Below the pieces are notes generated by a model, which saw only the letters and a program-made list of their open reading frames with translations, was not told the origin of the DNA and did not search any database. Positions 2,060 to 36,068 of a stretch of 37,046 bases of DNA are shown piece after piece. The DNA comes from a virus. Taxonomy: Duplodnaviria; Heunggongvirae; Uroviricota; Caudoviricetes. The stretch lies in the IMG/VR virus record IMGVR_UViG_2896601577_000003; one strand, given 5' to 3'. A program made the translations under genes and the position numbers. How positions within the stretch are numbered: position 1 is the stretch's first letter; every line of letters begins with the position of its first letter.

Positions 2060-4918
2060 TTATTCTGATGTCACTCTTTGCGAGTGAGCTATTTTTAAAT
2101 CAGCGTTTCCTTCAAATACTACATTCAACTCATAGTTAAGAGTTAGCTTGAATTTTTCTGAGTCACTTTTGATATTCTCTGAAGTGACATTTACTAACTT
2201 ATTATTATCATATTCTCTAATAATTAATTTAGTGAAGTAGTTATCCTTTACCACAAGAGAAAATGGTTGATTAACAAATGGTAAGAAGTAAACCTTACGG
2301 GTACCGGATTCAGTAGTTATGTTCATAGAGCCATCATCATTTTTTCTCATTAGTTCTCTGAGGTTGGGATTATCGAAAAGCATACGATTATATTGCTGAA
2401 AGATCTCTTTACTCATCACAAGAACCAGTTTGCCAGCCAAGTCAGCAGATGATTTTATGTGATCAATCAACATATTGAAATCTTCTATTACGGTATGTTG
2501 CGAACAGCCAGTGCTAAATAAATTTGAAAGTATTATTCTCTGGATGTCCTTGAGAATTAAGTCTGCTTGAATATCACCTTCATTGATATAAGGGATGGAT
2601 TCTATTCCTTCGGCATACGGTTCTTTATCTATCTTAATAGATATCTTATGTTTTGTGAAACAATCGCTAGCCTGCTTAAAATCAATAGATTTGAAAAGTG
2701 AAAGAGGGAGCGTTTTCTTGATGCGTTTACGAAGATGTTCTGATGTTTTACGTGCAGTGCTATCTAGTCGATGTACATCTATGGCAGCATCCTGAAGTCT
2801 CATATCAAGATCTTTCTTTAGCATGTTAATATGCTCTTGAAGCAACTTTCTTAAGTTTTCTTTTTTTGTTTGGAGATCGTCCAATGTTAAAGTCAGCTTG
2901 ATTTTAGTGTATTCGATGGAGTTACAAATTTTTGATAATACTCCAATGAGTCGTTGCTTCTCACGATATGTTATATAGTTGTTTTCTATTGCTTCTTTTA
3001 TTTCTTTTGATACGCTATCGTTCTTGTTAGAAAAAATTAATAATAGCTGAACCCATGATTGTTCCATATCAATAAATCCACAGTCAAAAACATTACTGTA
3101 AACTCTGCCCATCACCATGTCTGTTTTATCATAGTCACGTAAACGCCTTGCTAAACTATTCATCCACCCATTGTGCTCCATATTTTCAGACCATGTCCAC
3201 AGGCAGATTCTAATTAATATCTTGATTAGTTGGCTTGCATTATCAATTTCTTCAGTGGGAGTTTCATATCCACCGGTTTGGTCAATAAGTTTACCCTCTA
3301 AAATAAGTTTAATGTAATGTGTCATTAGTTTGTCAGAAGTATTGATTCTTGATGTCAGATAAAGACATGTGCATATACGCATGTCAGTCAACGCATTTAT
3401 GATGGCAATATTGAACCACTCTCTGTCTGAATTGAAGTTTAGTTTTTTGGATATGAAAAAAACCGGGTTAAAAAGCTGGCCTTTGTAACTGTATTTTTCT
3501 ACCGAATGGCTGTCAATATTCATTGAGTGCTGCCATCGGTTAATAAGATCGACGGCTGTATCAATAGTAGAAGGATCGCGAGTCTGTGTTGCATCAATAA
3601 TCATCGATGGAAGTTCTTGTAGTTGCGTTTTGCAAAATAATTCAAATAAATCTGAATTCTCTGTATTGCAGAAACGAAAGTTTATGCTTTCTTGATATTG
3701 CTCCCAAACAGTGGTATAGGTTCTTAATATACGATTATAACGTGAACGAAGCGAGGCATTTAAGAGTGATTGGTTGTTTCGGAACCATTCTGTCAATATT
3801 GACCATTGTGAACGAGTAATTCCCATATAGATACAAAGTTCATTGCTGATAAGATGTTTTCTATTATTGATAATACGCACTCCGCTCCAAAGACATAATT
3901 CAAAAAATCTTTCAGAAAGATTAATTTTATCCATGGAATTATTTGATATTTTATAAACTTCATCTGAAAACTCATATTGAAAACTCCGTTCAAATAATTC
4001 TGTAGTGATCAGTAAGAAGTTATTGTTGGTATTATCATCTTGAAAAAAATACAAATCGCAGAGATTATTAAAGTTATTAATTAATGCAGAGATAGCATTG
4101 TCAAAACTAATGAGATCAGAATCCCGCAGATACATATACGTATCTGCTGTTATAGCCTGCATTGTAAGACTTACGGAAAAATCTCCTCCTTTAATCGGAG
4201 CCCTATAAAAACATTGCTTAAGTATTTTTATTAATAAGCTGTCTGGTTTGATATTTTTAACGCTAAAAAGTATCTTACCCGTGGATTCTGTTTCTTTTGT
4301 ACGATTATCACCAATGACAAATGACGCAAAATGATTCTTCTTTTTTAGTTGGTAATTAATAAGATTAAGAGTAAGTTGAAAAGGACGGTGATATAAACTT
4401 AACTCATCTTCCTTAGAATAACTGCTAGCCACAGATATGTATTCTCCTTTGTAATCAGCTTGCTTGATTTCTAAATTTGAATAGTTATGTTTTTGATAGA
4501 TAGGGTATAACCTAAGCTTGGCTGAGATTTTGTTACAAATATGGGGCATTACTATTTCGAAGGCAATGTATCGCTTTATAATTATTTGCCGTTTTACATC
4601 ATCAAGAATTTCAAGACTCACGATAAAGAACCAAATAGAAAGAACTATGTTTATCAAAAGCCATAATATGCTGATTAGACAAGCTATACCATAAAGATAA
4701 CTTCCAAAGACAGTTTTAATTAGTACACTGAGAAGTATAAATCCTGATAAGAAAAGCCCGCTGAGTCCAGCAAGCATGAATCCTGAGTAACGCTGATAAG
4801 CAGTTTGGGCTATTTTTCTATCTGCCTTTTTTTGGAATAAGATACTTACTAAACCTATAACAAGGGGTATACAATACCAATAATTGTCAATTGGCCACTT
4901 AAAATGGTTGTTTGCCAT
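2060..4918 (-). CDS. Hypothetical 952-aa membrane-anchored protein, unknown family (cargo gene in AT-rich island)
   Basis: Uninterrupted 2859-nt ORF in visibly AT-rich DNA. The first ~110 aa contain 3-4 hydrophobic helices (CIPLVIGLVSILF; FMLAGLSGLFLSGFILLSVLI; YLYGIACLISILWLLINIVLSIWFFIVSL). The remaining ~840 aa are Lys/Asn/Ile-rich with a coiled-coil-like stretch (…LTLTLDDLQTKKENLRKLLQEHINMLKKDLDMRLQD…). I found no Walker A, PD-(D/E)xK, HEPN or kinase motif by eye. Confidence 0.6.
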   Translation of the reverse strand: MANNHFKWPIDNYWYCIPLVIGLVSILFQKKADRKIAQTAYQRYSGFMLAGLSGLFLSGFILLSVLIKTVFGSYLYGIACLISILWLLINIVLSIWFFIVSLEILDDVKRQIIIKRYIAFEIVMPHICNKISAKLRLYPIYQKHNYSNLEIKQADYKGEYISVASSYSKEDELSLYHRPFQLTLNLINYQLKKKNHFASFVIGDNRTKETESTGKILFSVKNIKPDSLLIKILKQCFYRAPIKGGDFSVSLTMQAITADTYMYLRDSDLISFDNAISALINNFNNLCDLYFFQDDNTNNNFLLITTELFERSFQYEFSDEVYKISNNSMDKINLSERFFELCLWSGVRIINNRKHLISNELCIYMGITRSQWSILTEWFRNNQSLLNASLRSRYNRILRTYTTVWEQYQESINFRFCNTENSDLFELFCKTQLQELPSMIIDATQTRDPSTIDTAVDLINRWQHSMNIDSHSVEKYSYKGQLFNPVFFISKKLNFNSDREWFNIAIINALTDMRICTCLYLTSRINTSDKLMTHYIKLILEGKLIDQTGGYETPTEEIDNASQLIKILIRICLWTWSENMEHNGWMNSLARRLRDYDKTDMVMGRVYSNVFDCGFIDMEQSWVQLLLIFSNKNDSVSKEIKEAIENNYITYREKQRLIGVLSKICNSIEYTKIKLTLTLDDLQTKKENLRKLLQEHINMLKKDLDMRLQDAAIDVHRLDSTARKTSEHLRKRIKKTLPLSLFKSIDFKQASDCFTKHKISIKIDKEPYAEGIESIPYINEGDIQADLILKDIQRIILSNLFSTGCSQHTVIEDFNMLIDHIKSSADLAGKLVLVMSKEIFQQYNRMLFDNPNLRELMRKNDDGSMNITTESGTRKVYFLPFVNQPFSLVVKDNYFTKLIIREYDNNKLVNVTSENIKSDSEKFKLTLNYELNVVFEGNADLKIAHSQRVTSE

Positions 4919-5178
4919 TCGGTTAATGAATGCCTAAACGGGAAATAATGTAAAAGATTATTTTTTATAAATAATTCGTTTAAATATCCAACATAAAGTA
5001 GTACAAATGAAAAAGCTGATATGCAAAGTACTGATTTAACCGGTGAGGATGTTAATCTTATGATGTTTTTTTCAATAAAATTCCATTTTAAATTCGAATA
5101 AAATGGATTTTTAACCATTTTATTACGAACATAGTTCTTTGCTAAAATCTCTGTTGCACTTAAAAATTGTCCAATCAT
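4855..5178 (-). CDS. Small hypothetical membrane ORF (107 aa), either a separate gene or the frame-shifted N-terminus of the 952-aa gene
   Basis: ORF overlaps the 5' end of the large ORF by 64 nt in another frame. Contains a hydrophobic helix (VLCISAFSFVLLYVGYL). Same AT-rich composition. Homopolymers GGGG/AAAA lie in the overlap. Confidence 0.35.
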   Translation of the reverse strand: MIGQFLSATEILAKNYVRNKMVKNPFYSNLKWNFIEKNIIRLTSSPVKSVLCISAFSFVLLYVGYLNELFIKNNLLHYFPFRHSLTEWQTTILSGQLTIIGIVYPLL

Positions 5179-5426
5179 GAATTACTCTTCTATAAAGTGT
5201 GGGTCTACTAACTAAACTGGAACTTTTACTATTGAGTCATATTCCCTTGGACGGGATGGACTGTGAAGATTATACTTGACTTCCTCTGTCATGTGGGAAA
5301 AACATCCGTATTATTGTTAGCATCTGGTTGATGCCCCAACCTCTGACATCTAGTGGGCTGATACATTATCTTTTGTTCTTACTGTCAGTGTAGAAGCACA
5401 TCTCAAAAATAATATTTTTAAGAGAT

Positions 5427-6692: not shown

Positions 6693-7877
6693 ATGAGTGA
6701 AACTCGTTTTCATGGTGCCCGTGTTACGGAGAATACCGACCTGGTAACAGCGATTAACGATGTTGATTCCAGCGTTATCGGTATCGTGGCAACGGCGGAT
6801 GATGCGGACGCGAAGCTGTTCCCGCTGAACAAGCCCACACTGCTGACCCGCGTCAATGACGTGCTGGGAAAATGCGGGACAACGGGGACGCTTTATCGTG
6901 CGCTTAAGGCCATCGCAGACCAGGTGAGCACAAAGGTGATCGTCGTTCGCGTGGCTGAACACAAAGAAGAAGACGGAAAGACGCAGGATCAACTGGTTAT
7001 CGGTGGTTCTGAGGATGACGGCAGCTATACGGGGATGTATGCGCTGCTTGTTGCAGAGCAGGATGAAAGCATCGGATACCGTCCGCGTATTCTGGCCGCG
7101 CCGGAGCTGGACACGGAGGCGGTAACAAAATCCCTGTGCGTGATTGCAGATAAACTGCGCGCGTTTGTGTATGCCTCATGTCATGGCTGTAACACGATGG
7201 CCGAGGCAATTACCTACCGCCAGAAATTCAACGAACGTGAGGTGATGCTCTTATGGCCGGACTTCATCGCCTACAACCCGAAAAATGGCAAAAACGAAAC
7301 GTTCCCCGCGCCTGCCTATGCGTGCGGCCTTCGTGCGTACATTGACCATGAACAGGGATGGCACAAATCGCTGTCCAACGTTCCGGTTAAAAATGTGCTG
7401 GGGATGTCGAGGCATGTGTTCTGGTCGTTGCAGGCCGAAGACAGCGATGCCAACAGCCTCAACAACAAAGAAATCACGACCATTATTCGTCGCAACGGGG
7501 TCCGCTTCTGGGGTAACCGCACACCGGAAACGAACGCCTACATCTTTGAGGTGTATACCCGAACCGCACAGGTGCTGGCTGATTCAATTGCGGAAGCGCA
7601 GTTTGAAACCATCGACAGTCCACTGACGCCTGCGAATGTGAAGGATGTTATCAGTGCCATCAGGGCAAAACTGGATTCACTGGTGACTGCCGGGAAACTG
7701 ATTGGCGCGGAGTGCTGGTATGACGTGGTGGATAACAGCACCACGGATTTACGTCAGGGACGTGTGCGTATTCGCTACAAATATACGCCCGTTCCGCCAC
7801 TGGAAGACATGGAGCTTTACCAGACGTTTACTGATGAATACTTTGAACCCGCATTTGCGGTGCTGGGAGGTGCCTGA
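6693..7877 (+). CDS. FI: Contractile tail sheath protein (P2 FI-like)
   Basis: 394 aa; motifs …FPLNKP…RILA…LRAF…REVMLLWPDF…EQGWHKSLSNV…RFWGNRT…TRTAQV…YTPVPPLE… match the P2 FI sheath family. AAGGGG RBS upstream. Confidence 0.9.
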   Translation: MSETRFHGARVTENTDLVTAINDVDSSVIGIVATADDADAKLFPLNKPTLLTRVNDVLGKCGTTGTLYRALKAIADQVSTKVIVVRVAEHKEEDGKTQDQLVIGGSEDDGSYTGMYALLVAEQDESIGYRPRILAAPELDTEAVTKSLCVIADKLRAFVYASCHGCNTMAEAITYRQKFNEREVMLLWPDFIAYNPKNGKNETFPAPAYACGLRAYIDHEQGWHKSLSNVPVKNVLGMSRHVFWSLQAEDSDANSLNNKEITTIIRRNGVRFWGNRTPETNAYIFEVYTRTAQVLADSIAEAQFETIDSPLTPANVKDVISAIRAKLDSLVTAGKLIGAECWYDVVDNSTTDLRQGRVRIRYKYTPVPPLEDMELYQTFTDEYFEPAFAVLGGA

Positions 7878-8353
7878 TGGCTGTGCCAAAACATCTTCGC
7901 TTTTTTACGCTGTTTGTGGATGGTGAAAACGAAGTGGGTAATGTGACGTCCGTCACTCTGCCTAAGCTGACGCGCAAAACCGACAGCTACCGGGGTGGTG
8001 GCATGATGGGTGCGGTAAGTATTGATCTCGGTCTGGACGACTCCGCGCTTGATGCGAGCTTTGTCATGGGGGCGCAGTTCGTGAGCTGTTCCTTAAGTAT
8101 GGCGGCACGATTGACGGCACGCTGCTGCGTTTTGCGGGTGAATACTACACCGATGCAGAAAGCGACCTGTATGAAGTCGAAATGCGCGGACGTGTGACGG
8201 AAATTGATATGGGGGAAGCCAAACAGGGCGAAGCCACATCACACACTTACGCCATTAAAACACCTACTACAAGCTGAGTGTTAACGATCGCCCGTTGTGG
8301 GAGATTGACCTGCTGAACTTCATTTACCGGAAGGACGGGGTAATGACTCCAAC

Positions 8354-8731
8354 TTATTGATAGTGTTTTATGTTCAGATAATGCCCGATGACTTTGTCAT
8401 GCAGCTCCACCGATTTTGAGAACGACAGCGACTTCCGTCCCAGCCGTGCCAGGTGCTGCCTCAGATTCAGGTTATGCCGCTCAATTCGCTGCGTATATCG
8501 CTTGCTGATTACGTGCAGCTTTCCCTTCAGGCGGGATTCATACAGTGGCCAGCCATCCGTCATCCATATCACCACGTCAAAGGGTGACAGCAAGCTCATA
8601 AGACGCCCCTGCGTCGCCATAGTGCGTTCACCGAATACGTGCGCAACAACCGTCTTCCGGAGCCTGTCATACGCGTAAAACAGCCAGCGCTGGCGCGATT
8701 TAGCCCCGACGTATCCCCACTGTTCGTCCAT
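8354..8731 (-). CDS. insB: IS1 InsB (expressed as InsAB' by -1 frameshift)
   Basis: 125-aa [43 protein letters not shown]… matches IS1 InsB. Confidence 0.9.
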
Positions 8732-8775
8732 TTCCGCGCAGACGATGACGTCACTGCCCGGCTGTATGCGCGAGG

Positions 8776-9051
8776 TTACCGACTGCGGCCTGAGTTTTTT
8801 AAGTGACGTAAAATCGTGTTGAGGCTAACGCCCATAATGCGTGCAGTTGCCCGGCATCCAACGCCATTCATGGCCATATCAATAATTTTCTGGTGCGTAC
8901 CGGGTTGAGAAGCGGTGTAAGTGAACTGCAGTTGCCATGTTTTACGGCAGTGAGAGCAGAGATAGCGCTGATGTCCGGCAGTGCTTTTGCCGTTACGCAC
9001 CACCCCGTCAGTAGCTGAACAGGAGGGACAGCTGATAGAAACAGAAGCCAC
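8776..9051 (-). CDS. insA: IS1 InsA
   Basis: 91 aa [46 protein letters not shown]… matches IS1 InsA. Confidence 0.9.
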
Positions 9052-9219
9052 TGGAGCACCTCAAAAACACCATCATACACTAAATCAGTAAGTTGGCAGC
9101 ATCACCGAAGGACGGCAAGGACATTGTGCCCGATCGCATCCGTTCCGCGCTTGGGCTTGGCTGATAAGTAATATGCTGGCGGCGCAGTGCGTCGCCTCTG
9201 ACTGAAAAGGAGACAACAG

Positions 9220-9594
9220 ATGAAAGACATCGATACTGAAACCCGGAATAACACCGTGGCGGATAATGTGACGGCAGTTGAGGATATGGCTGTCGAACGT
9301 GGCGTAAAACTGACCCGACCAATTGAGCGTGGTGGCGAAAAAATCACGTATGTGGAGATCACCGGGGCTATTGAGCAGGCTGGATCCCTGCGTGGTCTGT
9401 CGCTGTCTGATGTGCTGAATCTGAAAGCGGATACCATGTTCACGCTGTTGCCTCGCGTGACCTCGCCACGACTGGATGAAGTGATGATTAAAAAAATGTC
9501 GTCACGCGATTTTATTCAGTTGTGCGCTGTGGCTGTAAATTTTATGAGCGAGCCAGACTCTGGCGCGAAGAGCGTGCAGGAGACGGCAGCGTAA
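9220..9594 (+). CDS. E: Tail assembly chaperone (P2 gpE-like)
   Basis: 124-aa ORF between the tube and tape-measure genes. A downstream ORF in the -1 frame (open from 9492 to 9758) overlaps its 3' end, the conserved chaperone frameshift arrangement. Confidence 0.8.
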   Translation: MKDIDTETRNNTVADNVTAVEDMAVERGVKLTRPIERGGEKITYVEITGAIEQAGSLRGLSLSDVLNLKADTMFTLLPRVTSPRLDEVMIKKMSSRDFIQLCAVAVNFMSEPDSGAKSVQETAA

Positions 9595-9758
9595 TCACCC
9601 TGGTGTGCTTTGAGCACATCGAAGATCTGGTGGCGGATATTGCCGCCATTTTTAACTGGTCGCCCGCCGAAATCTTCATGATGACGCCCTGCGAAGTGGT
9701 TAGCTGGCGTGAGCGAGCGGCACTTCGTAGCGGGAATGCAGACAATGAAGACTCTTGA
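9492..9758 (+). CDS. E' extension reached by programmed -1 frameshift (E+E' fusion)
   Basis: -1 frame is open from 9492. A run of seven A (9490-9496, …ATT AAA AAA ATG… in the E frame) lies exactly where the two frames overlap. Confidence 0.55.
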   Translation, partial: KNVVTRFYSVVRCGCKFYERARLWREERAGDGSVITLVCFEHIEDLVADIAAIFNWSPAEIFMMTPCEVVSWRERAALRSGNADNEDS

Positions 9759-12551
9759 TATCCGGGTCGCTTTCAGCGCCGTTGACAGGCTGACCCGGCC
9801 TGCCGAAAACGCCCGCCGCCTGATGGGGCAGTTTGGTGACTCCATCCAGCGAACGCAGGGGGCGATCAAAAATCTCGAGCGTCAGGCGCGATCATTTGAG
9901 CGCGCCCGTGACGCTGTCAGTAAAGCGGATGCGGGCATCGTGAAAGCACGACGCCAGCTTAACGCCCTTAATCAGTTACAACGCACGGGTACAGTGCTCA
10001 GCGAAAAACAACAAAAGCTGATGCAGCAGTTAAGCACCCGGCTTGAACGCCTGAATGAATCGCGCACACGGGAAATTCAGAAAATGCGGGAGCTTGGCGG
10101 AGAGCTGAAACGCCACGGCATTTCCCTGACAGGCAGCGATAACACCATCCAGCAGGCCATCAGACGCACCGAACAGTACAACAACCAGCTTGAACGCGAA
10201 CGGCAGGCGCTTGCGCGTGTAACACGGGCGCGTGAGCGGTATTCGCGCGCGCAGGAAACAGCGGGAAAACTGAAAACAGGTGGTGCGCTGGCAATTGGTG
10301 CGGCAGCGGCGGGCGGCTATGCTGCCGGGCGTTTTTTGCAGCCTGCGATCGGGTTCGGCAAAGAGATGTTCCGCGTTCAGGCACTGACGCGAATCGACCA
10401 GAACAGCCCGCAGTTTAAGGCGCTGCGTGAGCAGGCGTTAAAACTTGGCTCTGAAACGCAGTTCACCGCAGGCGATGCCGCCAGTGGACAGGCATTTCTT
10501 GCAATGGCTGGCTTTACACCACAGGCCATTCAGGCTGCGCTCCCTGGCGTACTGAGCATGGCAACGGCTGGCGGTATGGACCTCGGTGAGACGGCGGATA
10601 TTGGCTCAAATATTCTGACGCAGTTCGGTCTTTCTGCTGACCAGATGGACCGGGTCGGCGACACACTCACCGCAGCGTTTACCCGTACCAACACTGACCT
10701 TCGCGCACTGGGTGAAACCATGAAATATGCAGGTCCGGTGGCGGGTAAGCTGGGAATATCTCTGGAGCAGGCCGCAGCGATGGCGGGCGTGCTGGCGAAT
10801 ATGGGTATCAGGGGGAGTGATGCTGGTACGGCAATGCGTGCCAGCCTGGCTCGTCTGGCATCACCGCCAAAGGCGGCAGCAGAGGCGCTGAAAGAGCTTG
10901 GCGTGTCTGTCTCGGATGCCGGGGCAAAATGCGCCCGATGGAGGATGTGCTGGCTGACCTTTATAAAGCTACCCGCAAATACGGGGAAGTTGACCGGGTA
11001 TCGTTCTTTAAGGACATTGCCGGAGAAGAGGCTTTCACATCATTTATGGCCCTCGTTGATGCGGCAGGTGACGGCTCCTTACCCAAACTGAGAAAAGAAC
11101 TTGAAGGCGCGCGCGGTGAGGCTGAACGCACGGCAAAGGTTATGGCCAACAACCTTGACGGCGATCTGAAATCACTCAGCAGTGCATGGGAAGGGTTGCG
11201 CATCCGCATTGCAGATCTGATTGACGGTCCGCTGCGTTCTGTCACGCAGTGGCTCACGCGTGTGGTATCAAAGGTGACGGCGCTGGCGCAGGCCCATCCC
11301 GCACTGACGCGCCAGCTACTGATTGCAGGCGGTGCATTGCTGGCAATGACTGCAACGGTTGGCTCGTTGTCGCTGGCTATTGGTGTGCTTGCTGGCCCGC
11401 TGGCAAAACTGCGTCTTGGTTTTTCCCTCCTGACCGGATCAATGAATGCTGTCAGGGTTCTGCCAGCACTATGGGGAATGGTGACGGGTTCCGTTTCTTT
11501 ACTGGGAGGCGCTATCGGGGCGTTGTTCAGTCCGGTTGGTCTTATCGTGGCTGCGCTTGCCGGAGCTGCCGTTCTTATCTGGAAATACTGGGATCCCATC
11601 AGGGCATTTTTTGCCGGGGTGTTCAGCGGGATTATGGAAAGGCTGACCCCGTTGCGCGAAACATTTGAACGGTTTGGTCCTGTTTTTGACGCAATCGGGA
11701 GTGGGATCAGCCAGGTGTTTAACTGGTTTAAATCGCTGCTGTCACCGATGGAGTCCAGCAAGGAAACTCTGGATAAATGTACCAGTGCTGGCGAGATATT
11801 CGGTAACGTTCTTGGCGGTGCGTTACAACTTGTTCTGACACCTGCAAAAATGTTGCTGGATACGCTGGCGTGGATACTTGAAAAGCTTGGTGTGCTTCCG
11901 GATGAAGCGGAAAGGGCGCGCAAGAAAATCGAAGACGCACAGCGTGCGGCCATTCTTCAGGACAAGGTTGCCTTGCTTCAGGGGGACCTGGCGAAAATCA
12001 ATCCGCCGAAGCCTGTGGAAAATGGCAATGGCACCGGAGGTGATAACCCCAAAGACAATAAACCGCTCACAGACAGCAATACCGGTACGCTGCGCAGACT
12101 CAGCAAAATTGCTGATAACACAGGTAAGCTGGTTGAGGAGACGAAAAAACGCATTGGCCCCGGCGATATTGTCTTTAAAAACCTGCCCCGAGCACTTGCT
12201 GTTCGTGGGGAGTGGCAGGAGCGGAAGATTGCGCAGGTCAGTAAGCCTGCCCCCGCAATTAATATCACACCCGTGGTTCCGGCTCCGCTGCCTCCGGCGC
12301 TGGTCCCTGTTGTTGCGGCCAGCTCCCGCCCGGTGGCGGAGGCTATACGATCTCCAGTGGCATCAGTTCCTGTAACTTCCCGTAACCGGGAGCCTGTTGC
12401 CTCCGGATTTGGTGGTGAAATTCATGTTCATCTGCATAACGTTGTTACGCAGAATCCCCGCGAACTGGCGAAACTGGTCGGTGAAATGGTCAGGGCAGAA
12501 ATGGAACGGCGCGCCCGTGCCGGGCGTGGCTGTTTTTACGATAAAGATTGA
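9736..12551 (+). pseudogene. T: Tail tape-measure protein (P2 gpT-like), split into two overlapping ORFs by a frame break
   Basis: ORFs 9709..11091 and 10929..12551 together give an ~810-aa Ala/Gly-rich protein with a hydrophobic central segment, typical of tape-measure proteins. The frames switch between about 10900 and 11090. Confidence 0.85.
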
Positions 12552-12557
12552 GGAGTC

Positions 12558-13052
12558 ATGGCCATGATGATGATCTACGGCATGTTTGTTTTTGAGCTGC
12601 GCACGCTGCCGCATCAGCAGTTACAGCAAAACAAAAGCTGGCGGCATGTGAAAAATGAACGCGTTAACCGTTCAGCAAGCTGGCAGTATATCGGTGCAGG
12701 TGATGATCGCATCGTTCTTTCTGGTGTGCTTTATCCTGAAATTACAGGTGGCGAAGTGTCGCTGTCGCTGCTGACCACGCAGGCGTATACAGGACGACCC
12801 TGGCCTTTGATTGATGGCGTCGGGCAGATTTACGGCATGTATGTCCTGACTGAAACGAATACGACCCGCTCCGAGTTTGATCGCTACGGTAAGGCGAAAA
12901 AGATAGAATTTTCACTGACTCTTGAACGCTGTGATGAGGATTTGCGGGAGCGCCTGCAATCCTCATCGTTCAGTGATATGCTGTCCGGCTTCAAAGATAA
13001 GGTGACATCATCTCTTAACAGCGCGGCCAGTTCAGTTAAAGGGCTGTTCTGA
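12558..13052 (+). CDS. U: Tail protein (P2 gpU-like)
   Basis: 164-aa ORF immediately after the tape-measure gene; sequence is consistent with the P2 gpU family as recalled. Confidence 0.8.
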   Translation: MAMMMIYGMFVFELRTLPHQQLQQNKSWRHVKNERVNRSASWQYIGAGDDRIVLSGVLYPEITGGEVSLSLLTTQAYTGRPWPLIDGVGQIYGMYVLTETNTTRSEFDRYGKAKKIEFSLTLERCDEDLRERLQSSSFSDMLSGFKDKVTSSLNSAASSVKGLF

Positions 13053-13065
13053 TTTAACACAAAAA

Positions 13066-13097
13066 CCGCTAATGGTCAGATTAGCGGTTTTCATTTT
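13066..13097. terminator. Bidirectional hairpin between convergent U and invertase genes
   Basis: Perfect 12-bp inverted repeat AAAACCGCTAAT / ATTAGCGGTTTT with a 6-nt loop, flanked by T-rich tracts on both strands. It overlaps the invertase stop codon. Confidence 0.5.
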
Positions 13098-13697: not shown

Positions 13698-13733
13698 AAG
13701 CGCAAATCATGCCATGCAGGCCAGAAACGGCCA

Positions 13734-13759
13734 TTATTTAAAACCTCGGTTTACAGGAA
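13734..13759. repeat. gix/hix-like 26-bp crossover site (left boundary of the invertible tail-fibre cassette)
   Basis: TTATTTAAAACCTCGGTTTACAGGAA closely resembles the Mu gix site as I recall it, and is a 21/26 inverted match to the site at 17187-17212. Confidence 0.7.
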
Positions 13760-14620
13760 ACGGTAAACAGGGCTGGTAACGCCGTGCAAAAAAATGGCGA
13801 TACCTTGTCCGGTGGGCTTACTTTTGAAAATGACTCAATCCTTGCCTGGATTCGAAATACTGACTGGGCGAAGATTGGATTTAAAAATGATGCCGATGGT
13901 GACACTGATTCATACATGTGGTTTGAAACAGGCGACAACGGCAATGAATATTTCAAATGGAGAAGCCGCCAGAGCACCACAACAAAAGACCTGATGACGC
14001 TGAAATGGGATGCACTAAATATTCTTGTTAATGCTGTCATTAATGGCAGTCTTGGAGTTGGTTCGACGAATGCGTTAGGTGGTAGCTCTATTGTTCTTGG
14101 TGATAATGACACCGGATTTAAACAGAATGGAGACGGTATTCTGGATGTTTATGCTAATAGTCAGCGTGTATTCCGCTTTCAGAATGGAGTGGCTATTGCT
14201 TTTAAAAATATTCAGGCCGGGGATGGTAAAAAATTCACGCTATCCAGCTCCAACAACTTCACAAAGAATGCAACGTTTAATTTATGGGGTGCTTCAACCC
14301 GTCCAGTAGTTGCAGAGTTAGGCGATGAGGCAGGATGGCATTTCTATAGCCAGCGAAATACAGATAACTCGGTAATATTTTCTGTTAACGGTCAGATACA
14401 GCCCAGCAACTGGGGGAATTTTGATTCACGCTATGTAAAAGATGTTCGCCTGGGTACGCGTGTTGTTCAATTGATGGCGCGTGGTGGTCGTTATGAAAAA
14501 GCCGGACACGCAATTACCGGATTAAGAATCATTGGTGAAGTAGATGGCGATGATGAAGCCATCTTCAGACCAATACAAAAATACATCAATGGCACATGGT
14601 ATAACGTCGCACAGGTGTAA
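13760..14620 (+). CDS. Alternative tail-fibre C-terminal variable domain (Sv), currently in the silent orientation
   Basis: Open frame from the crossover site; ends …IQKYINGTWYNVAQV, parallel to the other variable domain (…IQYCINGTWYNAGSI). Followed by a tail-fibre assembly gene. Confidence 0.7.
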   Translation, partial: TVNRAGNAVQKNGDTLSGGLTFENDSILAWIRNTDWAKIGFKNDADGDTDSYMWFETGDNGNEYFKWRSRQSTTTKDLMTLKWDALNILVNAVINGSLGVGSTNALGGSSIVLGDNDTGFKQNGDGILDVYANSQRVFRFQNGVAIAFKNIQAGDGKKFTLSSSNNFTKNATFNLWGASTRPVVAELGDEAGWHFYSQRNTDNSVIFSVNGQIQPSNWGNFDSRYVKDVRLGTRVVQLMARGGRYEKAGHAITGLRIIGEVDGDDEAIFRPIQKYINGTWYNVAQV

Positions 14621-14623
14621 ATT

Positions 14624-15151
14624 ATGCAGCATTTAAAAAATATTAAGTCCGGAAATCCAAAAACAAAAGAACAATATCAGCTAACAAAGAATTTTGATGT
14701 TATCTGGTTATGGTCCGAAGACGGTAAAAACTGGTATGAGGAAGTAAATAACTTTCAGGACGACACCATAAAGATTGTATACGACGAAAATAATATTATT
14801 GTTGCCATAACCAAAGATGCCTCAACGCTTAATCCCGAAGGCTTTAGTGTCGTTGAGATTCCAGATATAACAGCCAATCGTCGCGCCGATGATTCAGGGA
14901 AGTGGATGTTTAAGGACGGAACTGTGGTTAAGCGGATTTATACAGCAGACGAACAGCAACAACAGGCCGAATCACAAAAGGTCGCGTTGCTTTCTGAAGC
15001 TGAAAGCGTTATTCAGCCACTGGAACGCGCTGTCAGGCTGAATATGGCGATGGATGAGGAACGCACACGACTGGAGTCATGGGAACGCTACAGCGTTCTG
15101 GTCAGCCGTGTGGATACAGCAAATCCCGAATGGCCACAAAAGCCTGAGTAA
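14624..15151 (+). CDS. Tail-fibre assembly protein (Tfa/U type) for the silent fibre variant
   Basis: 175 aa, N-terminus [40 protein letters not shown]…; paralogous to ORF 15180..15713 on the opposite strand. Confidence 0.8.
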
Positions 15152-15179
15152 AAATTAAGGCCCAATATCGGGCCTTCTC

Positions 15180-15713
15180 TCATTCTGGTTGTTCGGGAAA
15201 CGTTACTGGCAGGCTGGAGGTGTCTGTAGATTCGACTTTCTGCGCATAGAGCATCCACTCGGTTAATTTTTGTTTATTCTCGTCGGAAATGATGCCCAGC
15301 CGTAGCTGTGAGTCCCATAGCTGGGTTTTATCCCTGACAAGTTGCAACAGGCTTTGCTTTTCATTTTCCGCTTGTTGCCTCTGCTCTTCCTCGGTATAAG
15401 TTCGCTTTATCACTACGCCATCTTTGAACAACCATTTCCCCGAAATATCAGCCCGGCGATTTGCTGTAATATCAGGTAATTCAACGACGCTTGCGCCTTC
15501 CGGATTAATTGCTGAAACATCCTTTTCAATACAAATAATAACGCCGTTATGGTCATAGACCATTTTCAAAGTGTCTGGCTGGAAATTCTTTTGTTCCTCA
15601 TACCAGTTTTTTCCATCATCTGAATAAAGCCATTTGATGTTAAATTGCTTTGTTAGCTGGTATTGCTCTTTTGTTTTAGGGTTGCCAGCAGTAATGTTTT
15701 TTAAGTGCATCAT
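15180..15713 (-). CDS. Tail-fibre assembly protein (Tfa/U' type) for the currently joined fibre variant
   Basis: 177 aa [40 protein letters not shown]…; convergent with its paralogue, as in Mu/P1-type invertible fibre cassettes. Confidence 0.8.
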   Translation of the reverse strand: MMHLKNITAGNPKTKEQYQLTKQFNIKWLYSDDGKNWYEEQKNFQPDTLKMVYDHNGVIICIEKDVSAINPEGASVVELPDITANRRADISGKWLFKDGVVIKRTYTEEEQRQQAENEKQSLLQLVRDKTQLWDSQLRLGIISDENKQKLTEWMLYAQKVESTDTSSLPVTFPEQPE

Positions 15714-15715
15714 CG

Positions 15716-17186
15716 TTAAATACTCCCCGCGTTATACCACGTCCCATTAATGCAATACTGAATTGGCCTTGCCTGTGTTGTATCAATTAATTCATCACGG
15801 TTTCCGTTAACTGAACCCGTAACGACATAACCTGACCTGTCAGACCAGCCGGGACCATTCCATGTCTGAACAGATGACAGACCGCCAAGGCGAATACCTG
15901 TAATAAACCTTGAGTTACATTCTGCCCGCGTATATGCACCAACATCTCCCGCTGAAGGTTTTCGTGTCGTGGTATAGAAATCTGACCAACCTAATTCAAC
16001 CCGGTAATGACTCCAACTTATTGATAGTGTTTTATGTTCAGATAATGCCCGATGACTTTGTCATGCAGCTCCACCGATTTTGAGAACGACAGCGACTTCC
16101 GTCCCAGCCGTGCCAGGTGCTGCCTCAGATTCAGGTTATGCCGCTCAATTCGCTGCGTATATCGCTTGCTGATTACGTGCAGCTTTCCCTTCAGGCGGGA
16201 TTCATACAGTGGCCAGCCATCCGTCATCCATATCACCACGTCAAAGGGTGACAGCAAGCTCATAAGACGCCCCAGCGTCGCCATAGTGCGTTCACCGAAT
16301 ACGTGCGCAACAACCGTCTTCCGGAGCCTGTCATACGCGTAAAACAGCCAGCGCTGGCGCGATTTAGCCCCGACGTATCCCCACTGTTCGTCCATTTCCG
16401 CGCAGACGATGACGTCACTGCCCGGCTGTATGCGCGAGGTTACCGACTGCGGCCTGAGTTTTTTAAGTGACGTAAAATCGTGTTGAGGCTAACGCCCATA
16501 ATGCGTGCAGTTGCCCGGCATCCAACGCCATTCATGGCCATATCAATAATTTTCTGGTGCGTACCGGGTTGAGAAGCGGTGTAAGTGAACTGCAGTTGCC
16601 ATGTTTTACGGCAGTGAGAGCAGAGATAGCGCTGATGTCCGGCAGTGCTTTTGCCGTTACGCACCACCCGTCAGTAGCTGAACAGGAGGGACAGCTGATA
16701 GAAACAGAAGCCACTGGAGCACCTCAAAAACACCATCATACACTAAATCAGTAAGTTGGCAGCATCACCATTCAACCCCATAACCATCACGAGCCGACCT
16801 GTAGGAAATGCCACCATTTTTATAATTCACACGGAATTGTACGGCAGGACAGCTACCAGCATTTATATTAAAGTGAAGAATTAATGTAGATGCACCACCA
16901 ATCAGGGCGTTATATGCACTACTATCCCAATTCCATCCAATGGATGTATCACCATTAACAGTATTACCTGTTTGTCGGAGTGCAAATGCATTGACATTTT
17001 TGGCACTAATTGAAATATCGCTAGAACCATCAAAACCAACTCCAGCAATTTTTCGTGCTGTTTTCAGCTTTGTTGCAGTAGCGGCATTGCCGGACAGTTC
17101 CCAGAAAGGCCACCGCTGAATGTTTGTCGATTGGTCCAGGTATTCGCTGTACTGAGTAACGGTATTTTCTCCCCGCTTGTGCCGAG
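15716..17186 (-). pseudogene. Tail-fibre variable C-terminal segment (Sv') joined in frame to H, interrupted by IS1 copy 2
   Basis: Reading on from H through the crossover site gives …AKNVNAFALRQTGNTVNGDTSIGWNWDSSAYNALIGG…DGYGVE | IS1 | …GWSDFYTTTRKPSAGDVGAYTRAE…IQYCINGTWYNAGSI, stop at 15718-15716. Confidence 0.7.
16003..16769 (-). mobile_element. IS1 copy 2 inserted inside the invertible tail-fibre cassette
   Basis: Same termini as copy 1. Perfect 9-bp target-site duplication ATTCAACCC at 15994-16002 and 16770-16778. InsB intact (16018..16395); insA frame-broken at a C-run (ORFs 16440..16667 and 16532..16714). Confidence 0.95.
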
Positions 17187-18476
17187 TTCTCGTAAACCGA
17201 GGTATTCGATAACGGCAGCAACGGTCGATTTCGCAAGAATATCCCGCCCGACTTTTGTCAGGGTTGCCAGGCTGGCGACATCATTCCCCGTAAAATACGG
17301 AAACCTGTCTGCCGCAGTAGCAAGCCCGGCCAGCGCCGTCAGGGTGGCATCTTTCGGTTGCTTACCCGCAAGCGCGTTAGTCATGGTGGTCGCAAAATTC
17401 GGGTCGTTTCCCAGCGCCGCCGCTAACTCGTTCAGCGTATTCAGTGCGTCAGGTGACGAATCTACAAGGGCGGCAATCGCAGCCATAACGAAAGCCGTGC
17501 TTGCGATTTGGGTATTATTCGTTCCCTGTCGCGCAGTTGGCGTTGTTGGCGTTCCGGTCAGCGCAGGACTGTTTAAGGGCGCTTTCTTGTTCGTTTCATC
17601 CATTACCGCCTTAACCGCTTTCGATGTCGCGGCCAGTGTTTCAGACGTGCTGTTGGTGGCACTACTGAGCTGGACTATCCCTTTTTGTGCCGTCGTGGCG
17701 TCCTGAGCGGTATATTTTGCGTTAGCAAGGTCATACGCGGCCTTTACTGCTTTCGGCGTTGCAGCCTGCGTTTCAGACGTGCTGTTGGTGGCGCTACTGA
17801 GCTGGACAAGGCCTTTTCGCGTCGTGCTGGCATCCTGCGCAGTATATTTACCGTTAGCAAGATCATACGCGGCCTTTACTGCTTTCGGCGTTGCAGCCTG
17901 CGTTTCAGACACGCTGTTAGTGGCGCTACTGAGTTGAACAAAGCCTTTTGCGGTCAGCGAGGCGTCCGGGTGACGTCGTGACTGTTCATGCTCTTTCAGT
18001 TTGTCATCCACGTAATCCACTGTGGCCATCACCATGGTGTTGTCCACGGTAAGCGCCACGGTGGCAGTGCTGGATACGGTCAGAATGGTGCGAAATGTTT
18101 GTGCACGACCGGACCCTTCGGCAACGGCTGGCTTGTAACTTTCGGCAGTATTTCCCACCGCGATTAAATCGCCGTGCTCATCAAATACACCAATTTCCCG
18201 GATCCAGAATCCGCCCGTTTCAGGAGGAATAACCAGCTCCGCAATAATGCGGTTCTGATGTGTTGCGTCCAGGATGACGCGATTAACAGTATGTCGCCAC
18301 ACCTCATGCACCAGACGGGTCTGCTTACTGTCTGGTGTGGGCAACGTGCCGCCACCGTCGCCCACGGCCATATGAGTCAGGCGGACAGGCTTACCATCTG
18401 GCGCGGCTACCTGAGCTAATTTTTTTGCACCCGTATCGGTGATAATGGTTTTAAATTTTCGTGTTGTGGTACTCAT
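17064..18476 (-). CDS. H: Tail fibre protein, constant N-terminal part (P2 gpH-like)
   Basis: 470-aa ORF with three tandem copies of a fibre repeat (…VQLSSATNSTSETQAATPKAVKAAYDLAN…). The ORF ends at 17064 only because of a 1-nt break near 17100; the reading frame otherwise continues through the crossover site into Sv'. Confidence 0.85.
   Translation of the reverse strand: MSTTTRKFKTIITDTGAKKLAQVAAPDGKPVRLTHMAVGDGGGTLPTPDSKQTRLVHEVWRHTVNRVILDATHQNRIIAELVIPPETGGFWIREIGVFDEHGDLIAVGNTAESYKPAVAEGSGRAQTFRTILTVSSTATVALTVDNTMVMATVDYVDDKLKEHEQSRRHPDASLTAKGFVQLSSATNSVSETQAATPKAVKAAYDLANGKYTAQDASTTRKGLVQLSSATNSTSETQAATPKAVKAAYDLANAKYTAQDATTAQKGIVQLSSATNSTSETLAATSKAVKAVMDETNKKAPLNSPALTGTPTTPTARQGTNNTQIASTAFVMAAIAALVDSSPDALNTLNELAAALGNDPNFATTMTNALAGKQPKDATLTALAGLATAADRFPYFTGNDVASLATLTKVGRDILAKSTVAAVIEYLGLRELGTSGEKIPLLSTANTWTNRQTFSGGLSGNCPAMPLLQQS
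17187..17212. repeat. gix/hix-like 26-bp crossover site (right boundary), inside the H coding sequence
   Basis: TTCTCGTAAACCGAGGTATTCGATAA; its reverse complement TTATCGAATACCTCGGTTTACGAGAA matches the site at 13734-13759 at 21/26 positions. Confidence 0.7.
17600..17990. repeat. Three tandem ~132-bp repeats inside H (tail-fibre repeat motif)
   Basis: Near-identical DNA units, for example starting 17731 and 17863, encoding KG(L/I)VQLSSATNS(T/V)SETQAATPKAVKAAYDLAN(G/A)KYTAQDA…; boundaries approximate. Confidence 0.6.
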
Positions 18477-30169: not shown

Positions 30170-30760
30170 TCAGGTGTTATTTTTATCTGTCGTCAGTGGG
30201 CTAAACCATCCACAATTTACATCGCATGACTGATGCGTTCTGTCCTCGTGTTTCTCCTGCCACAATGCTTTTCCGCCAGCCTTTATGATGGCTCTTTCAA
30301 CATCCCGCTCGTATCGCAAGGGCTGAAATACGTCATTAATGAAATATTCGCTTATGTCCGGAAGCGATACTGCAAAATTATTTGTTTGTTGCGCCGTCCT
30401 GCTATGCAGCAAAGCGGCATGCTTTAATGCGTCCTGTGCTTTCTGGAATTTAAGTGCATAGTCAGTGGCGATTTTTTCCAGTTCAGCGATTCGGTTGTCT
30501 TTGGTTTCCAGCCAATCAAGTAGCGCCAATACTTCAGGATCCCCGACATCCAACACTGTTACGCGTGATTTTTCATAATGTTCGTCAGCAAGAGTTCGGC
30601 CAATTTTGAAATCTCCATCATCACCATAACCGGAGCAGGCATAAACAACCTGTGCTCCAGATATTCGCTGAATTGACATTTCCTCGCCGCAAATAGGGCA
30701 TTTCGGTACTGGCACAGGTGAATAACGTTCACGTAATGCCTGATAGTTGATTTCGCTCAT
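30170..30760 (-). CDS. Hypothetical 196-aa protein with N-terminal zinc-ribbon-like motif; last gene of the early-strand operon next to cos
   Basis: MSEINYQALRERYSPVPVPKCPICGEEMSIQRISGAQVVYACSGYG… (C-x2-C … C) plus a C-terminal …HQSCDVNCGW. No family recognised. Confidence 0.55.
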   Translation of the reverse strand: MSEINYQALRERYSPVPVPKCPICGEEMSIQRISGAQVVYACSGYGDDGDFKIGRTLADEHYEKSRVTVLDVGDPEVLALLDWLETKDNRIAELEKIATDYALKFQKAQDALKHAALLHSRTAQQTNNFAVSLPDISEYFINDVFQPLRYERDVERAIIKAGGKALWQEKHEDRTHQSCDVNCGWFSPLTTDKNNT

Positions 30761-30823
30761 TAAGTCGTTCTCCTTGTTTATGTTCTGAGGTGGAGAGCAG
30801 GGCGAACTCGCCCTGATGTTGTG

Positions 30824-31135
30824 TTATTCAGGAAATAACGCCCGGATATTTCCGGCCATCTGACTGGTTATCTGTGCGGTTGATACTGGCTGTGATGTGG
30901 GGCGTTCTGTCCTGGTTTGTGTCACTGATAACGCTTCATCACCAGCCCATGCAGCCAGTCGATAAGCCTCTGCCGGATTCATTTTCAGAAGTGCCAGCCC
31001 GGCCAGAAAAGCCACGCGTTGGCCGCTTTTGCGGGCTTCTGGTGTAAGGCTGTCCAGCCAGGCGCATGCTTCTCCTTCGTTCTTGACGGCGGTGGGCTTC
31101 AGATAGAAACTTATCCGTCTGGTTGGAGTCGTCAT
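30824..31135 (-). CDS. ParR-like partition adaptor / centromere-binding protein
   Basis: From ATG at 31135: MTTPTRRISFYLKPTAVKNEGEACAWLDSLTPEARKSGQRVAFLAGLALL…IRALFPE resembles plasmid R1 ParR as recalled (…IAFKLNP…LDSIP…ALTAGLALY…LRSLFP). Start lies 4 nt after the parM-like stop with AAGGAG upstream. The ORF-track start at 31270 is an upstream extension. Confidence 0.65.
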   Translation of the reverse strand: MTTPTRRISFYLKPTAVKNEGEACAWLDSLTPEARKSGQRVAFLAGLALLKMNPAEAYRLAAWAGDEALSVTQTRTERPTSQPVSTAQITSQMAGNIRALFPE

Positions 31136-31139
31136 TGGT

Positions 31140-31745
31140 TTACTCCTTGTCCATTGCGTACAGCCCATTAACCAGAGCAAACTGTGGCACCCCGTCCGCG
31201 ATGAAAGTCGCATTAACTCCGCAGGCTTCGCGGATAGCGGGTGCCACAATCTCCGCCCCTCCACCGACAACCATCACCCGCCCGTAACCCGAAAAACCCG
31301 CCAGCGCGCGGATCACGCGTTGTTTCAGTGTTTCTTCCTTTTCACGAATTACCGCCATAAGGCTGGCGTAATGCGCGTCATTGTGGATGTGCTGGCGCAG
31401 CCAGGCTTCATCATGGCGATGTTCGATAATGGTATTGGCGATGTGGTGACTGGTGCGCATACCGTTAGTGGCCATCACCGACAGTACGGCATCGGCCATC
31501 AGAGAAACGCCCACGTGTGGATCGCAAAACACCTGGCTGATACCTGCCAGTTGCCCCTGAACCTTTGCCACATCCAGCGTGGTTCCGCCCAAATCCACAA
31601 TCAGCAGGGATTCAAACGGACTCATGTCAGCCAGTGCCTTAAAGCCAGCCGGAATGGATTCAGGCATAACCCGTACGTTACGGATAGTGAATGCTTCGCC
31701 GTTCTGGTACTCCACCGGGCGCATGACGTTCGCTTTTTTGCGGTT
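31140..31745 (-). pseudogene. ParM/StbA-like actin-fold ATPase, C-terminal ~200 codons only (5' end removed at the IS911 junction)
   Basis: …SLLIVDLGGTTLDVAKVQGQLAGISQVFCDPHVGVSLMADAV… and …GYGRVMVVGGGAEIVAPAI…VNGLYAM match the ParM phosphate-2 and C-terminal motifs. The first 5 codons of ORF 31140..31760 are encoded by the IS911 terminal repeat. Confidence 0.7.
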
Positions 31746-32902
<1,157 letters not shown>

Positions 32903-33167
32903 AACCGAAGAACACGGCGGTGCGGAGTCCGGAGAGTAACGGAATAGCAGAGAGCTTCGTGAAAACGATAAAGCGTGACTACATCAGTATCATGCCCAAA
33001 CCAGACGGGTTAACGGCAGCAAAGAACCTTGCAGAGGCGTTCGAGCATTATAACGAATGGCATCCGCATAGTGCGCTGGGTTATCGCTCGCCACGGGAAT
33101 ATCTGCGGCAGCGGGCTTGTAATGGGTTAAGTGATAACAGATGTCTGGAAATATAGGGGCAAATCCA
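32903..33167 (+). mobile_element. IS2 3'-terminal fragment (about 265 bp) abutting IS911
   Basis: Identical in content to 1464-1728 of the complete IS2 (InsD C-terminus …[28 protein letters not shown]… and right end GGGGCAAATCCA at 33167). Confidence 0.85.
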
Positions 33168-33366
33168 CTGCGGCACAGATCAGCTCGGAAAGTTCGTTAA
33201 GTGCATCCAGATCATCAGCGTAAAAAGCCACGTCATACAGACTTCGGATTGCTCTGGTCAATGAGTCACGGGCCGCACGTTCAGCATGAGCGCCTGATGC
33301 ACTTAAGCGAAAATAAAAACGCTCAAGTGCTTTGTTAATGAGAGTTTTATATTCTTTGCCCATCAC
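33168..33366 (-). pseudogene. Early-operon gene, 5' fragment truncated at the IS2 fragment
   Basis: ORF 33127..33366: MMGKEYKTLINKALERFYFRLSASGAHAERAARDSLTRAIRSLYDVAFYADDLDALNELSELICAAVD then an IS2-encoded tail. Confidence 0.4.
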
Positions 33367-33374
33367 AACGCCCT

Positions 33375-34010
33375 TTAATCTGCTTTCTGTATTTCAGCTT
33401 CTGAATCCATACAAATAATTTCGATATAGGGTTCATCGCCATTAACCTGGCGTGCCTTTTCAGCTTCGCTAATGATTTCTCGTACGGTCTGGTACGGAAG
33501 TTCCACAAGCAGTCGCGTGCCGTTCAGATAAACGTAAGTGGCTTCGTCGGCTCCGTTTTTACCCGCCGGAGTCACTCCGTCAATAGCGGATGCACGTAAT
33601 AACAGTTCACCGCGAAAATCAATAAAACGGATAAATACACCTTGTGCATGGTCTTTGGTCATAAAGCACCTGTTATAAATCAGTCTGTTTAATAAAACTT
33701 TGCCGCGAAGCAGACGATCAATCGTGCGAAGTGCTTCGTATAATGTGAAATCCTGCCCGAACTGATTGTCGCCACAGCTCAATGCAAAAATGCGGTTTCC
33801 GGTAAACGGATTGCGTGGGCATTTGTGGATCACGATTCCAGCTTTCTCAATCAGCCAGGTGTGCTCGCCGATTTGTTTTACTGGGTAGCCATCCTGCGTT
33901 GCGTGTGTATCACTCAGGCTGTAGCGGATGTTGCTGCGTGATGCACTGGTAGTGAAACGGTTAGCGTGGCGTTCTGTTCCGGTACGAAAATTACGGCGTT
34001 GCTTCAGCAT
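33375..34010 (-). CDS. Hypothetical early-operon protein (211 aa), in the position of P2 orf78/B
   Basis: Intact ORF downstream of the cox-position gene; no motif recognised. Confidence 0.45.
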   Translation of the reverse strand: MLKQRRNFRTGTERHANRFTTSASRSNIRYSLSDTHATQDGYPVKQIGEHTWLIEKAGIVIHKCPRNPFTGNRIFALSCGDNQFGQDFTLYEALRTIDRLLRGKVLLNRLIYNRCFMTKDHAQGVFIRFIDFRGELLLRASAIDGVTPAGKNGADEATYVYLNGTRLLVELPYQTVREIISEAEKARQVNGDEPYIEIICMDSEAEIQKAD

Positions 34011-34024
34011 AAAATGACACCTCG

Positions 34025-34303
34025 TTATTTTGTCATCTGCACGTATTTTTCTGCGCTCCTGATTGTTTTCAGGAAAAGAGCGAAGAGATTTACTGTGCGT
34101 CTTGAGTTCTTTTCATCTTGGTTGATGGGAATTGAACCTCTGTCAGCCTGTCTTTTCACTGTGTTAACAGCTTGGTTGGTACGCTTTGCGTAATCTTTCA
34201 GGCTTTCTTCAAGTACTGGTAACCCATGCTCATCGCGGTAGGGATAGAACGCTGCTAAACGCTCAAAGTCTGCCTGTTCGTGTGTGTTCAGGACTTTTGC
34301 CAT
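34025..34303 (-). CDS. Small early regulator in the Cox position (first gene of the early operon, divergent from C)
   Basis: 92-aa ORF, similar in size to P2 Cox (91 aa) but not recognisably similar in sequence. Assigned by position only. Confidence 0.4.
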   Translation of the reverse strand: MAKVLNTHEQADFERLAAFYPYRDEHGLPVLEESLKDYAKRTNQAVNTVKRQADRGSIPINQDEKNSRRTVNLFALFLKTIRSAEKYVQMTK

Positions 34304-34348
34304 GTGTGATAACCTGCGCTATCTGTGGTTGTTTGTGACTTGGTGTGC

Positions 34349-34388
34349 TTATAAGTACACCTTGTGCGCAAGCTTAGTGTACTTATAG
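34349..34388. promoter_or_regulatory. Candidate operator: 40-bp near-palindrome in the divergent cox/C promoter region
   Basis: TTATAAGTACAC…GTGTACTTATAG inverted arms (11/12) around the palindromic core CTTGTGCGCAAGC, centred between the divergent starts at 34303 and 34400. Confidence 0.4.
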
Positions 34389-34399
34389 GGACACTGTCA

Positions 34400-34708
34400 A
34401 TGCTTATCGGTGAAAAAATTAGAGTGATTCGTGAATCAGAGGATTTAACGCGCGAAGAATTTTGCGGCCTGATTGATGTGCCTATCGGCACTTTGCGTCG
34501 TTATGAAACGGGGCGGATTGAAAACATAGGGGGCGAAGTGCTTATCAAGATTGTTAATCACCCTCGCTTTTTTAAGTACATGAATTGGCTTATGACGGGA
34601 AAAACAAATGAGGCTGCTGGGCAGATCAGTCCCTCTCTCTCCCCTGATGGGCCAGAAAACACATCGTCTTCTCAAAAATCCCGCAAGACTGGTACACAGC
34701 CCGGCTAA
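34400..34708 (+). CDS. C: Immunity repressor (P2 C-like, HTH)
   Basis: From MLIGEKIRVIRESEDLTREEFCGLIDVPIGTLRRYETGR… to …QISPSLSPDGPENTSSSQKSRKTG; parallels P2 C as recalled (…SEKIVLMRKSEYLSRQQLADLTGVPYGTLSYYESGR…QIAPALAHFGQNETTSPHSGQKTG). The ORF-track start at 34364 is an upstream extension. Confidence 0.8.
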   Translation: MLIGEKIRVIRESEDLTREEFCGLIDVPIGTLRRYETGRIENIGGEVLIKIVNHPRFFKYMNWLMTGKTNEAAGQISPSLSPDGPENTSSSQKSRKTGTQPG

Positions 34709-34757
34709 TCATAGAACGCTGGGGCATGGTGGTCTTGTAACGCTGGGGTTTCACGAA

Positions 34758-36065: not shown

Positions 36066-36068
36066 CGA

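Follow-up and report, generated by a model that had tools for sequence, protein, structure and literature searches.

An IS1 element near the 3' end of a phage tail-tube gene raises the question whether the insertion disabled this gene, and the prophage with it, or whether it struck a gene that was already broken. We analyzed this locus in a window of 37,046 bases, which is the whole stretch of DNA that was available. The data almost certainly describe a simple insertion of a complete IS1SD-like IS1 into a defective P88-like prophage in a Shigella-type chromosome. Shigella-type is a working assignment, based on the IS load and on two relatives that are named S. boydii strains. The coordinates of all features are collected in Table 1.

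The element is a complete IS1 with a perfect target-site duplication

The window of 37,046 bases was searched for the end patterns of IS1. They were found in exactly two places, at 8339/9106 and at 16003/16769. The first pair encloses 768 bp (8339-9106) that constitute a complete element with its transposase genes on the minus strand. The first-pass annotation had described a 768-bp IS1 with canonical ends at this position, and both ends are indeed exact. The left and right terminal repeats agree with each other at 18 of 23 positions. InsAB', the IS1 transposase, arises when the ribosome slips into the -1 frame at the A6C motif. In the element studied here, a -1 slip at A6C yields an open InsAB' frame of 232 aa. 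This protein scored 245 bits against the NCBIfam model NF033558 (IS1 family transposase), for which the cut-off is 100 bits, and 258, 94 and 70 bits against Pfam PF03400, PF12759 and PF03811, respectively. The region of the finding was also scanned for promoters and terminators. The sole signal above chance was promoter-like and lies at 9099-9072 (minus strand) within IRL, where the insA promoter of IS1 is expected. An Rfam scan of the same region returned no match.

Every defining trait of the IS1 family that can be tested on sequence was found, namely the length, the ends, the insA/A6C/insB' arrangement, the profile matches and the 9-bp duplication. The nearest IS1 copies among 5426 complete E. 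coli genomes were 99.6% identical and carry the PGAP label IS1SD. The element is like IS1SD, the Shigella dysenteriae isoform that is close to IS1A/IS1R of E. coli K-12 and plasmid R100, in its 768 bp, its ends, the A6C motif, the 232-aa InsAB' and the 9-bp duplication. A single residue differs. The T at 8610 places Gln148 in InsAB' where these elements have Leu, and this allele is not private to the copy in the tube gene.

We then turned to the flanks of the element. Within the 37,046 bases there are just two occurrences of the 9-mer GAAGGACGG, against a mean of 0.25 in shuffled sequence. Both occurrences abut the element, at the positions that had been reported for a perfect 9-bp duplication (8330-8338 and 9107-9115), and that claim is thus correct. 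Two given flanking 9-mers would match by chance with a probability of about 4e-6. The empty site was observed in six related loci and in an intact E. coli homologue (L001). In all of them exactly 777 bp (768 + 9) are absent and GAAGGACGG is present as a single copy. The IS1 insertion is real and correct to the base.

Table 1. Coordinates of the IS1 insertion, the tail-tube pseudogene and other mobile-element features in the window
Feature	Position	Strand	Remark
IS3-family elements or fragments (n = 3)	402-1728, 31746-33167, ~35000-36100		
rve-domain transposase ORFs of the IS3-family elements	812-1717, 31776-32501, 35133-36023		
Tail-tube (P2 FII family) pseudogene, 5' part	7877..8338	+	Codons 1-155 of the intact 170-aa homologue
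G5 run, first frameshift	8068..8072	+	Codon 64/65; 1-bp deletion vs G6 of intact homologue
A4 run, second frameshift	8257..8260	+	Codon 128; 1-bp deletion vs A5 of intact homologue
Left copy of 9-bp duplication	8330..8338	.	GAAGGACGG; abuts IS1
Complete IS1, IS1SD-like	8339..9106	-	IRL at the 9106 end, IRR at the 8339 end
IRR, 23-bp terminal inverted repeat	8339..8361	+	GGTAATGACTCCAACTTATTGAT; exact match to canonical end
insB' frame, open, catalytic part of InsAB'	8354..8799	-	PF03400 2.7e-77, NF033558 5e-73
insA, 91 aa, intact	8776..9051	-	Pfam PF03811 and PF12759
A6C motif in insA/insB' overlap, predicted -1 frameshift site	8794..8802	-	TTAAAAAAC; sequence motif
IRL, 23-bp terminal inverted repeat	9084..9106	-	GGTGATGCTGCCAACTTACTGAT; reverse complement ends at 9106; canonical, exact
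Right copy of 9-bp duplication	9107..9115	.	GAAGGACGG; abuts IS1
Junction with IS1, sequence			CTTCATTTACCGGAAGGACGG followed by GGTAATGACTCC
Tail-tube pseudogene, 3' remnant	9116..9164	+	Last 15 codons KDIVPDRIRSALGLG and TGA (9162-9164)
Second IS1, own perfect 9-bp duplication	15994-16002 and 16770-16778		ATTCAACCC
Second IS1, 767 bp	16003..16769	-	Same orientation as the first; 1-bp deletion in C run, insA frameshifted
ALIL frameshift pseudoknot (Rfam RF01497)	35091-35207		

The tail-tube gene carries frameshifts besides IS1

The tube gene was restored in silico. IS1 and one copy of the duplication were excised, and for the restored protein both deleted bases were also put back. The excised sequence was aligned with an intact 513-nt homologue from E. 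coli JNE151685 (WP_000290450, 'phage major tail tube protein'). Compared with this gene, the locus has four lesions: a G to T exchange at 7942 (K22N), the shortening of G6 to G5, the shortening of A5 to A4, and IS1. Frame breaks had been suspected near 8080 and 8265. Both are real, but their positions had to be corrected to the two homopolymer runs at 8068-8072 and 8257-8260. Along the sequence the reading frame of the tube gene runs in 0, then in -1 and then in -2. The ORF that begins at the tube start codon has 106 aa and ends at 8197, and only about its first 65 residues are authentic. An intact tube ORF is not present, the frame being interrupted by two 1-bp deletions and IS1.

The element was inserted after nucleotide 464 of the tube gene, in codon 155 of 170 and 15 codons from the stop. 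The distance had been given as about 18 codons before the end. This figure is reached only when counting starts from the first base of the duplicated 9-mer (codon 152 of 170), whereas 15 codons lie downstream of the insertion. Since 768 + 9 = 777 = 3 x 259, IS1 and the additional 9-mer leave the frame unchanged. The statement that the reading frame resumes past the element thus stands, while the end of the gene, earlier placed at 9163, is a TGA at 9162-9164. In the C-terminal frame, the junction reads ...NFIYRKDG followed by VMTPTY and two stops.

The restored tube protein matched PF04985 (Phage tail tube protein FII) with 9e-47 over residues 4-168. Against TIGR01611 it scored 122.6 bits (cut-off 102.75 bits, 1e-35). 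Alignment of the restored protein with P2 FII, the check proposed in the first-pass annotation, gave 42% identity with an E value of 5e-43, and the description of the gene as FII-like proved right at the family level. The full-length match to the FII-family profiles holds only after the in silico repair. The restored 170-aa protein resembles P2 gpFII in matching the family profile from end to end, and the gene order of P2 is kept here (sheath, tube, E/E+E', tape measure, U). In contrast to P2 gpFII, the gene in the window is a pseudogene with two frameshifts and IS1. The appropriate annotation is a pseudogene with three lesions rather than an IS1-disrupted gene.

The frameshifts are older than the insertion

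In the index of the assembly collection, 1068 blocks contain exactly this truncated 106-aa product. Ten related loci, taken from the more than 1000 listed assemblies, were read in detail. The G5 run, the A4 run and K22N were present in all ten, with or without IS1. In four of these loci (L003, L004 from CP026866.1, L006 and L010), IS1 occupies the identical position, points the same way and is flanked by the same duplication. The other six (L005 from CP000036.1, L007 from CP026731.1, L008, L009, L011 and L012) have an uninterrupted site in which GAAGGACGG occurs once. Two of these six come from named strains, S. boydii serotype 4 Sb227 for CP000036.1 (PMC8767353) and S. boydii ATCC 8700 for CP026731.1 (PMC9430107). 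Both 1-bp deletions are real, because they are shared by many independent assemblies. Since G5 and A4 also occur in the loci that lack IS1, the deletions predate the element, and IS1 did not inactivate the tube gene. Judged by this distribution, the tube gene was dead before IS1 arrived.

About nine fixed SNPs in the flanks separate the loci with IS1 from the loci that lack it. Together with the shared junctions, these SNPs fit a single insertion that was inherited by one clade. The part of the window from 7745 to 13091 is an exact substring of CP026867.1 (GCA_002949895.1) at 409192-414538, which takes in IS1 and the tape-measure frameshift that is private to the window. The window was probably taken from CP026867.1, a record whose accession series also contains Shigella reference strains. 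None of 5426 complete E. coli genomes had the insertion, as a query across both junctions gave no match with a coverage of 80% or more. In the GTDB representative genomes, neither the exact left junction nor the G5 frameshift allele was found. Presence or absence of the insertion can serve to mark one clade among the Shigella-type strains with this P88-like remnant.

From established IS1 biology, the following course of events would be expected. InsAB' transposase, produced by the -1 frameshift at A6C, would bind the terminal repeats of about 23 bp and would join IS1 to a target whose strands are cut 9 bp apart. Repair of the resulting gaps would then give the duplication of GAAGGACGG. The target was codon 155 of 170 in a tube gene that two 1-bp homopolymer deletions had already turned into a pseudogene, and the insertion was afterwards passed on vertically within one strain clade. 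As the tube gene was already a pseudogene, the insertion was presumably selectively neutral. Functionally, the insertion most likely had no effect, since the tube gene no longer worked and the prophage has further defects. This type of event is already known and represents ordinary prophage decay. Its importance outside annotation is small; what the locus offers is a clean textbook insertion with an empty-site control, in which the order of events is resolved, frameshifts first and IS1 later.

Identity between the IS1 copies does not date the insertion

The second IS1 sits inside an invertible tail-fibre segment. The first-pass annotation had proposed to compare the two copies base by base in order to judge the age of the insertion. 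This comparison revealed two differing positions, an A for T at the equivalent of 8610 and a 1-bp deletion in the C run of insA. In the sister genome CP026866.1, the second IS1 has 768 bp. The 1-bp deletion is thus private to the genome of the window, or it is an assembly error.

The base at 8610 was followed in other genomes. The T is missing from the orthologous IS1 in 4/4 sister assemblies, which have A and hence Leu148. In GCA_900457245.1, at least seven copies at unrelated sites (L016-L022) match the tube-site element with 100% identity along all 768 bp, and most of them have 9-bp duplications of their own. On the sequence evidence, Gln148 is a multi-copy allele in this lineage. The identical copies at other loci, most of which have their own duplications, suggest that the Gln148 variant has transposed.

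The allele difference at the fixed tube site may have arisen by gene conversion between dispersed IS1 copies (concerted evolution in Shigella). We regard this as a tentative explanation with somewhat less than an even chance of being right, and a plain point mutation or a repeat consensus error explains the base at 8610 equally well. If gene conversion is the true cause, identity between IS copies is useless as a clock for dating insertions. Whatever the cause, the age of the insertion could not be read from the comparison, because the tube-site copy has many identical counterparts at other sites of a related genome and sister genomes differ in their allele at this fixed site. The same caution applies to identity among IS copies wherever it is taken to date insertions. 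The phylogenetic distribution of the insertion is better evidence on its history than copy identity.

Alternative explanations

We considered whether IS1 inactivated a working tube gene and thereby the prophage, so that the other frame breaks would be later decay or sequencing errors. By itself, the element would cut off the last 15 residues and append VMTPTY, and both frame breaks fall in homopolymer runs, where sequencing errors tend to occur. However, both 1-bp deletions were found in all ten independently assembled relatives, including the six with the empty site, S. boydii Sb227 among them. The deletions are older than the insertion, and IS1 as the inactivating lesion was therefore rejected as very improbable.

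Even less probable is that the IS1 pair represents the arms of a Tn9-like composite transposon which carried the 6.9 kb of tail genes lying between them. Such an arrangement is suggested by the same orientation of the two copies, by their spacing of 7.66 kb and by their near identity, with only 2 differing positions. Yet each copy has a perfect 9-bp duplication of its own (GAAGGACGG versus ATTCAACCC), the outer flanks are unlike, and the DNA between the copies is colinear with the intact phage P88_4B11 except for the invertible segment. Owing to these separate duplications and the colinearity, the two elements are to be seen as two independent simple insertions in place, and the composite transposon was rejected for lack of a shared duplication in the outer flanks. 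A misplacement of IS1 during assembly of a genome rich in IS1 copies has hardly any probability left either. IS-rich genomes are difficult to assemble, and the genome has several private 1-bp deletions that are possible assembly errors. Against this stand the same junctions and the same duplication in four other independent assemblies, on which misassembly was rejected, and an excision product that equals the empty site of the relatives exactly. A precise 9-bp duplication, moreover, could not be created by an artefact. We thus retain a simple insertion of IS1 into a tube gene that was already a pseudogene. As a direct pair, the two IS1 copies could mediate a deletion of 7.66 kb via homologous recombination.

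The prophage is P88-like and decayed

Over most of its length, the window is 96-99% nucleotide-identical to, and colinear with, phage P88_4B11 (Xuanwuvirus). In the tube region, the nucleotide identity to P88_4B11 and to Citrobacter phage Shae_phiSM is 96%. By these identities, the prophage is P88-like (Peduoviridae, genus Xuanwuvirus) and not P2. Phage P2 itself (genus Peduovirus) was ruled out, with 42% identity of the tube protein to P2 FII as opposed to 96-99% of the window to P88_4B11. The prophage has no counterpart of P88_4B11 30206-35441, a region that contains the replication gene, and the gap lies beside the second IS3-family element. A perfect direct repeat of 265 bp (1464-1728 = 32903-33167) links the first two IS3-family elements. 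The decay of this prophage is evident from deletions, frameshifts and at least five IS insertions, the IS1 in the tube gene being one of them.

Four 1-bp deletions, at 4863, 6325, 10920 and 16666, are private to this genome when set against the relatives compared at each site. Their sequence contexts are G5, CGCGC, G5 and C4, respectively. They frameshift a cargo ORF, gpD, the tape-measure gene (split into 9745-11091 and 10929-12551) and insA of the second IS1. These deletions may be real decay or homopolymer assembly errors.

Decay of genes and prophages driven by IS elements has been described in Shigella, with IS1 expansion and pseudogene formation (PMC8072062, PMC3218036). The present case is alike in its many IS copies, its pseudogenes and a defective prophage that carries IS1 and IS3-family elements. 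It shows no notable difference from that pattern; the IS element in the tube gene struck a gene that was already dead.

Other features of the prophage

The invertible tail-fibre segment spans 13730-17216 and has crossover sites of about 25 bp at 13730-13754 and 17192-17216. It contains two tail-fibre assembly genes, alternative fibre C-termini and the second IS1. In CP026866.1 (L031) and in phage P88_4B11 the segment has the opposite orientation. As it is inverted relative to the sister CP026866.1, the adjacent resolvase-family invertase seems to have stayed active after the second IS1 was inserted.

A cargo ORF lies on the minus strand at 2060-5179, between an ogr-like gene and gpD, and has 1039 aa when intact. 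The deletion at 4863 (G5 to G4) frameshifts it and leaves 952 aa. Its GC content is 33%, compared with 51% for the window. The N-terminus looks hydrophobic and, as judged by eye, is possibly membrane-spanning. The ORF had no match in Pfam or PADLOC. Among 5426 complete E. coli genomes it was present in just 5, with the PGAP label 'MFS transporter' or hypothetical, and an accessory or defence role is possible. A tail-fibre gene contains a 132-bp tandem duplication at 17608-17871 with units that are 83% identical, and the same structure is visible in the comparison with P88_4B11.
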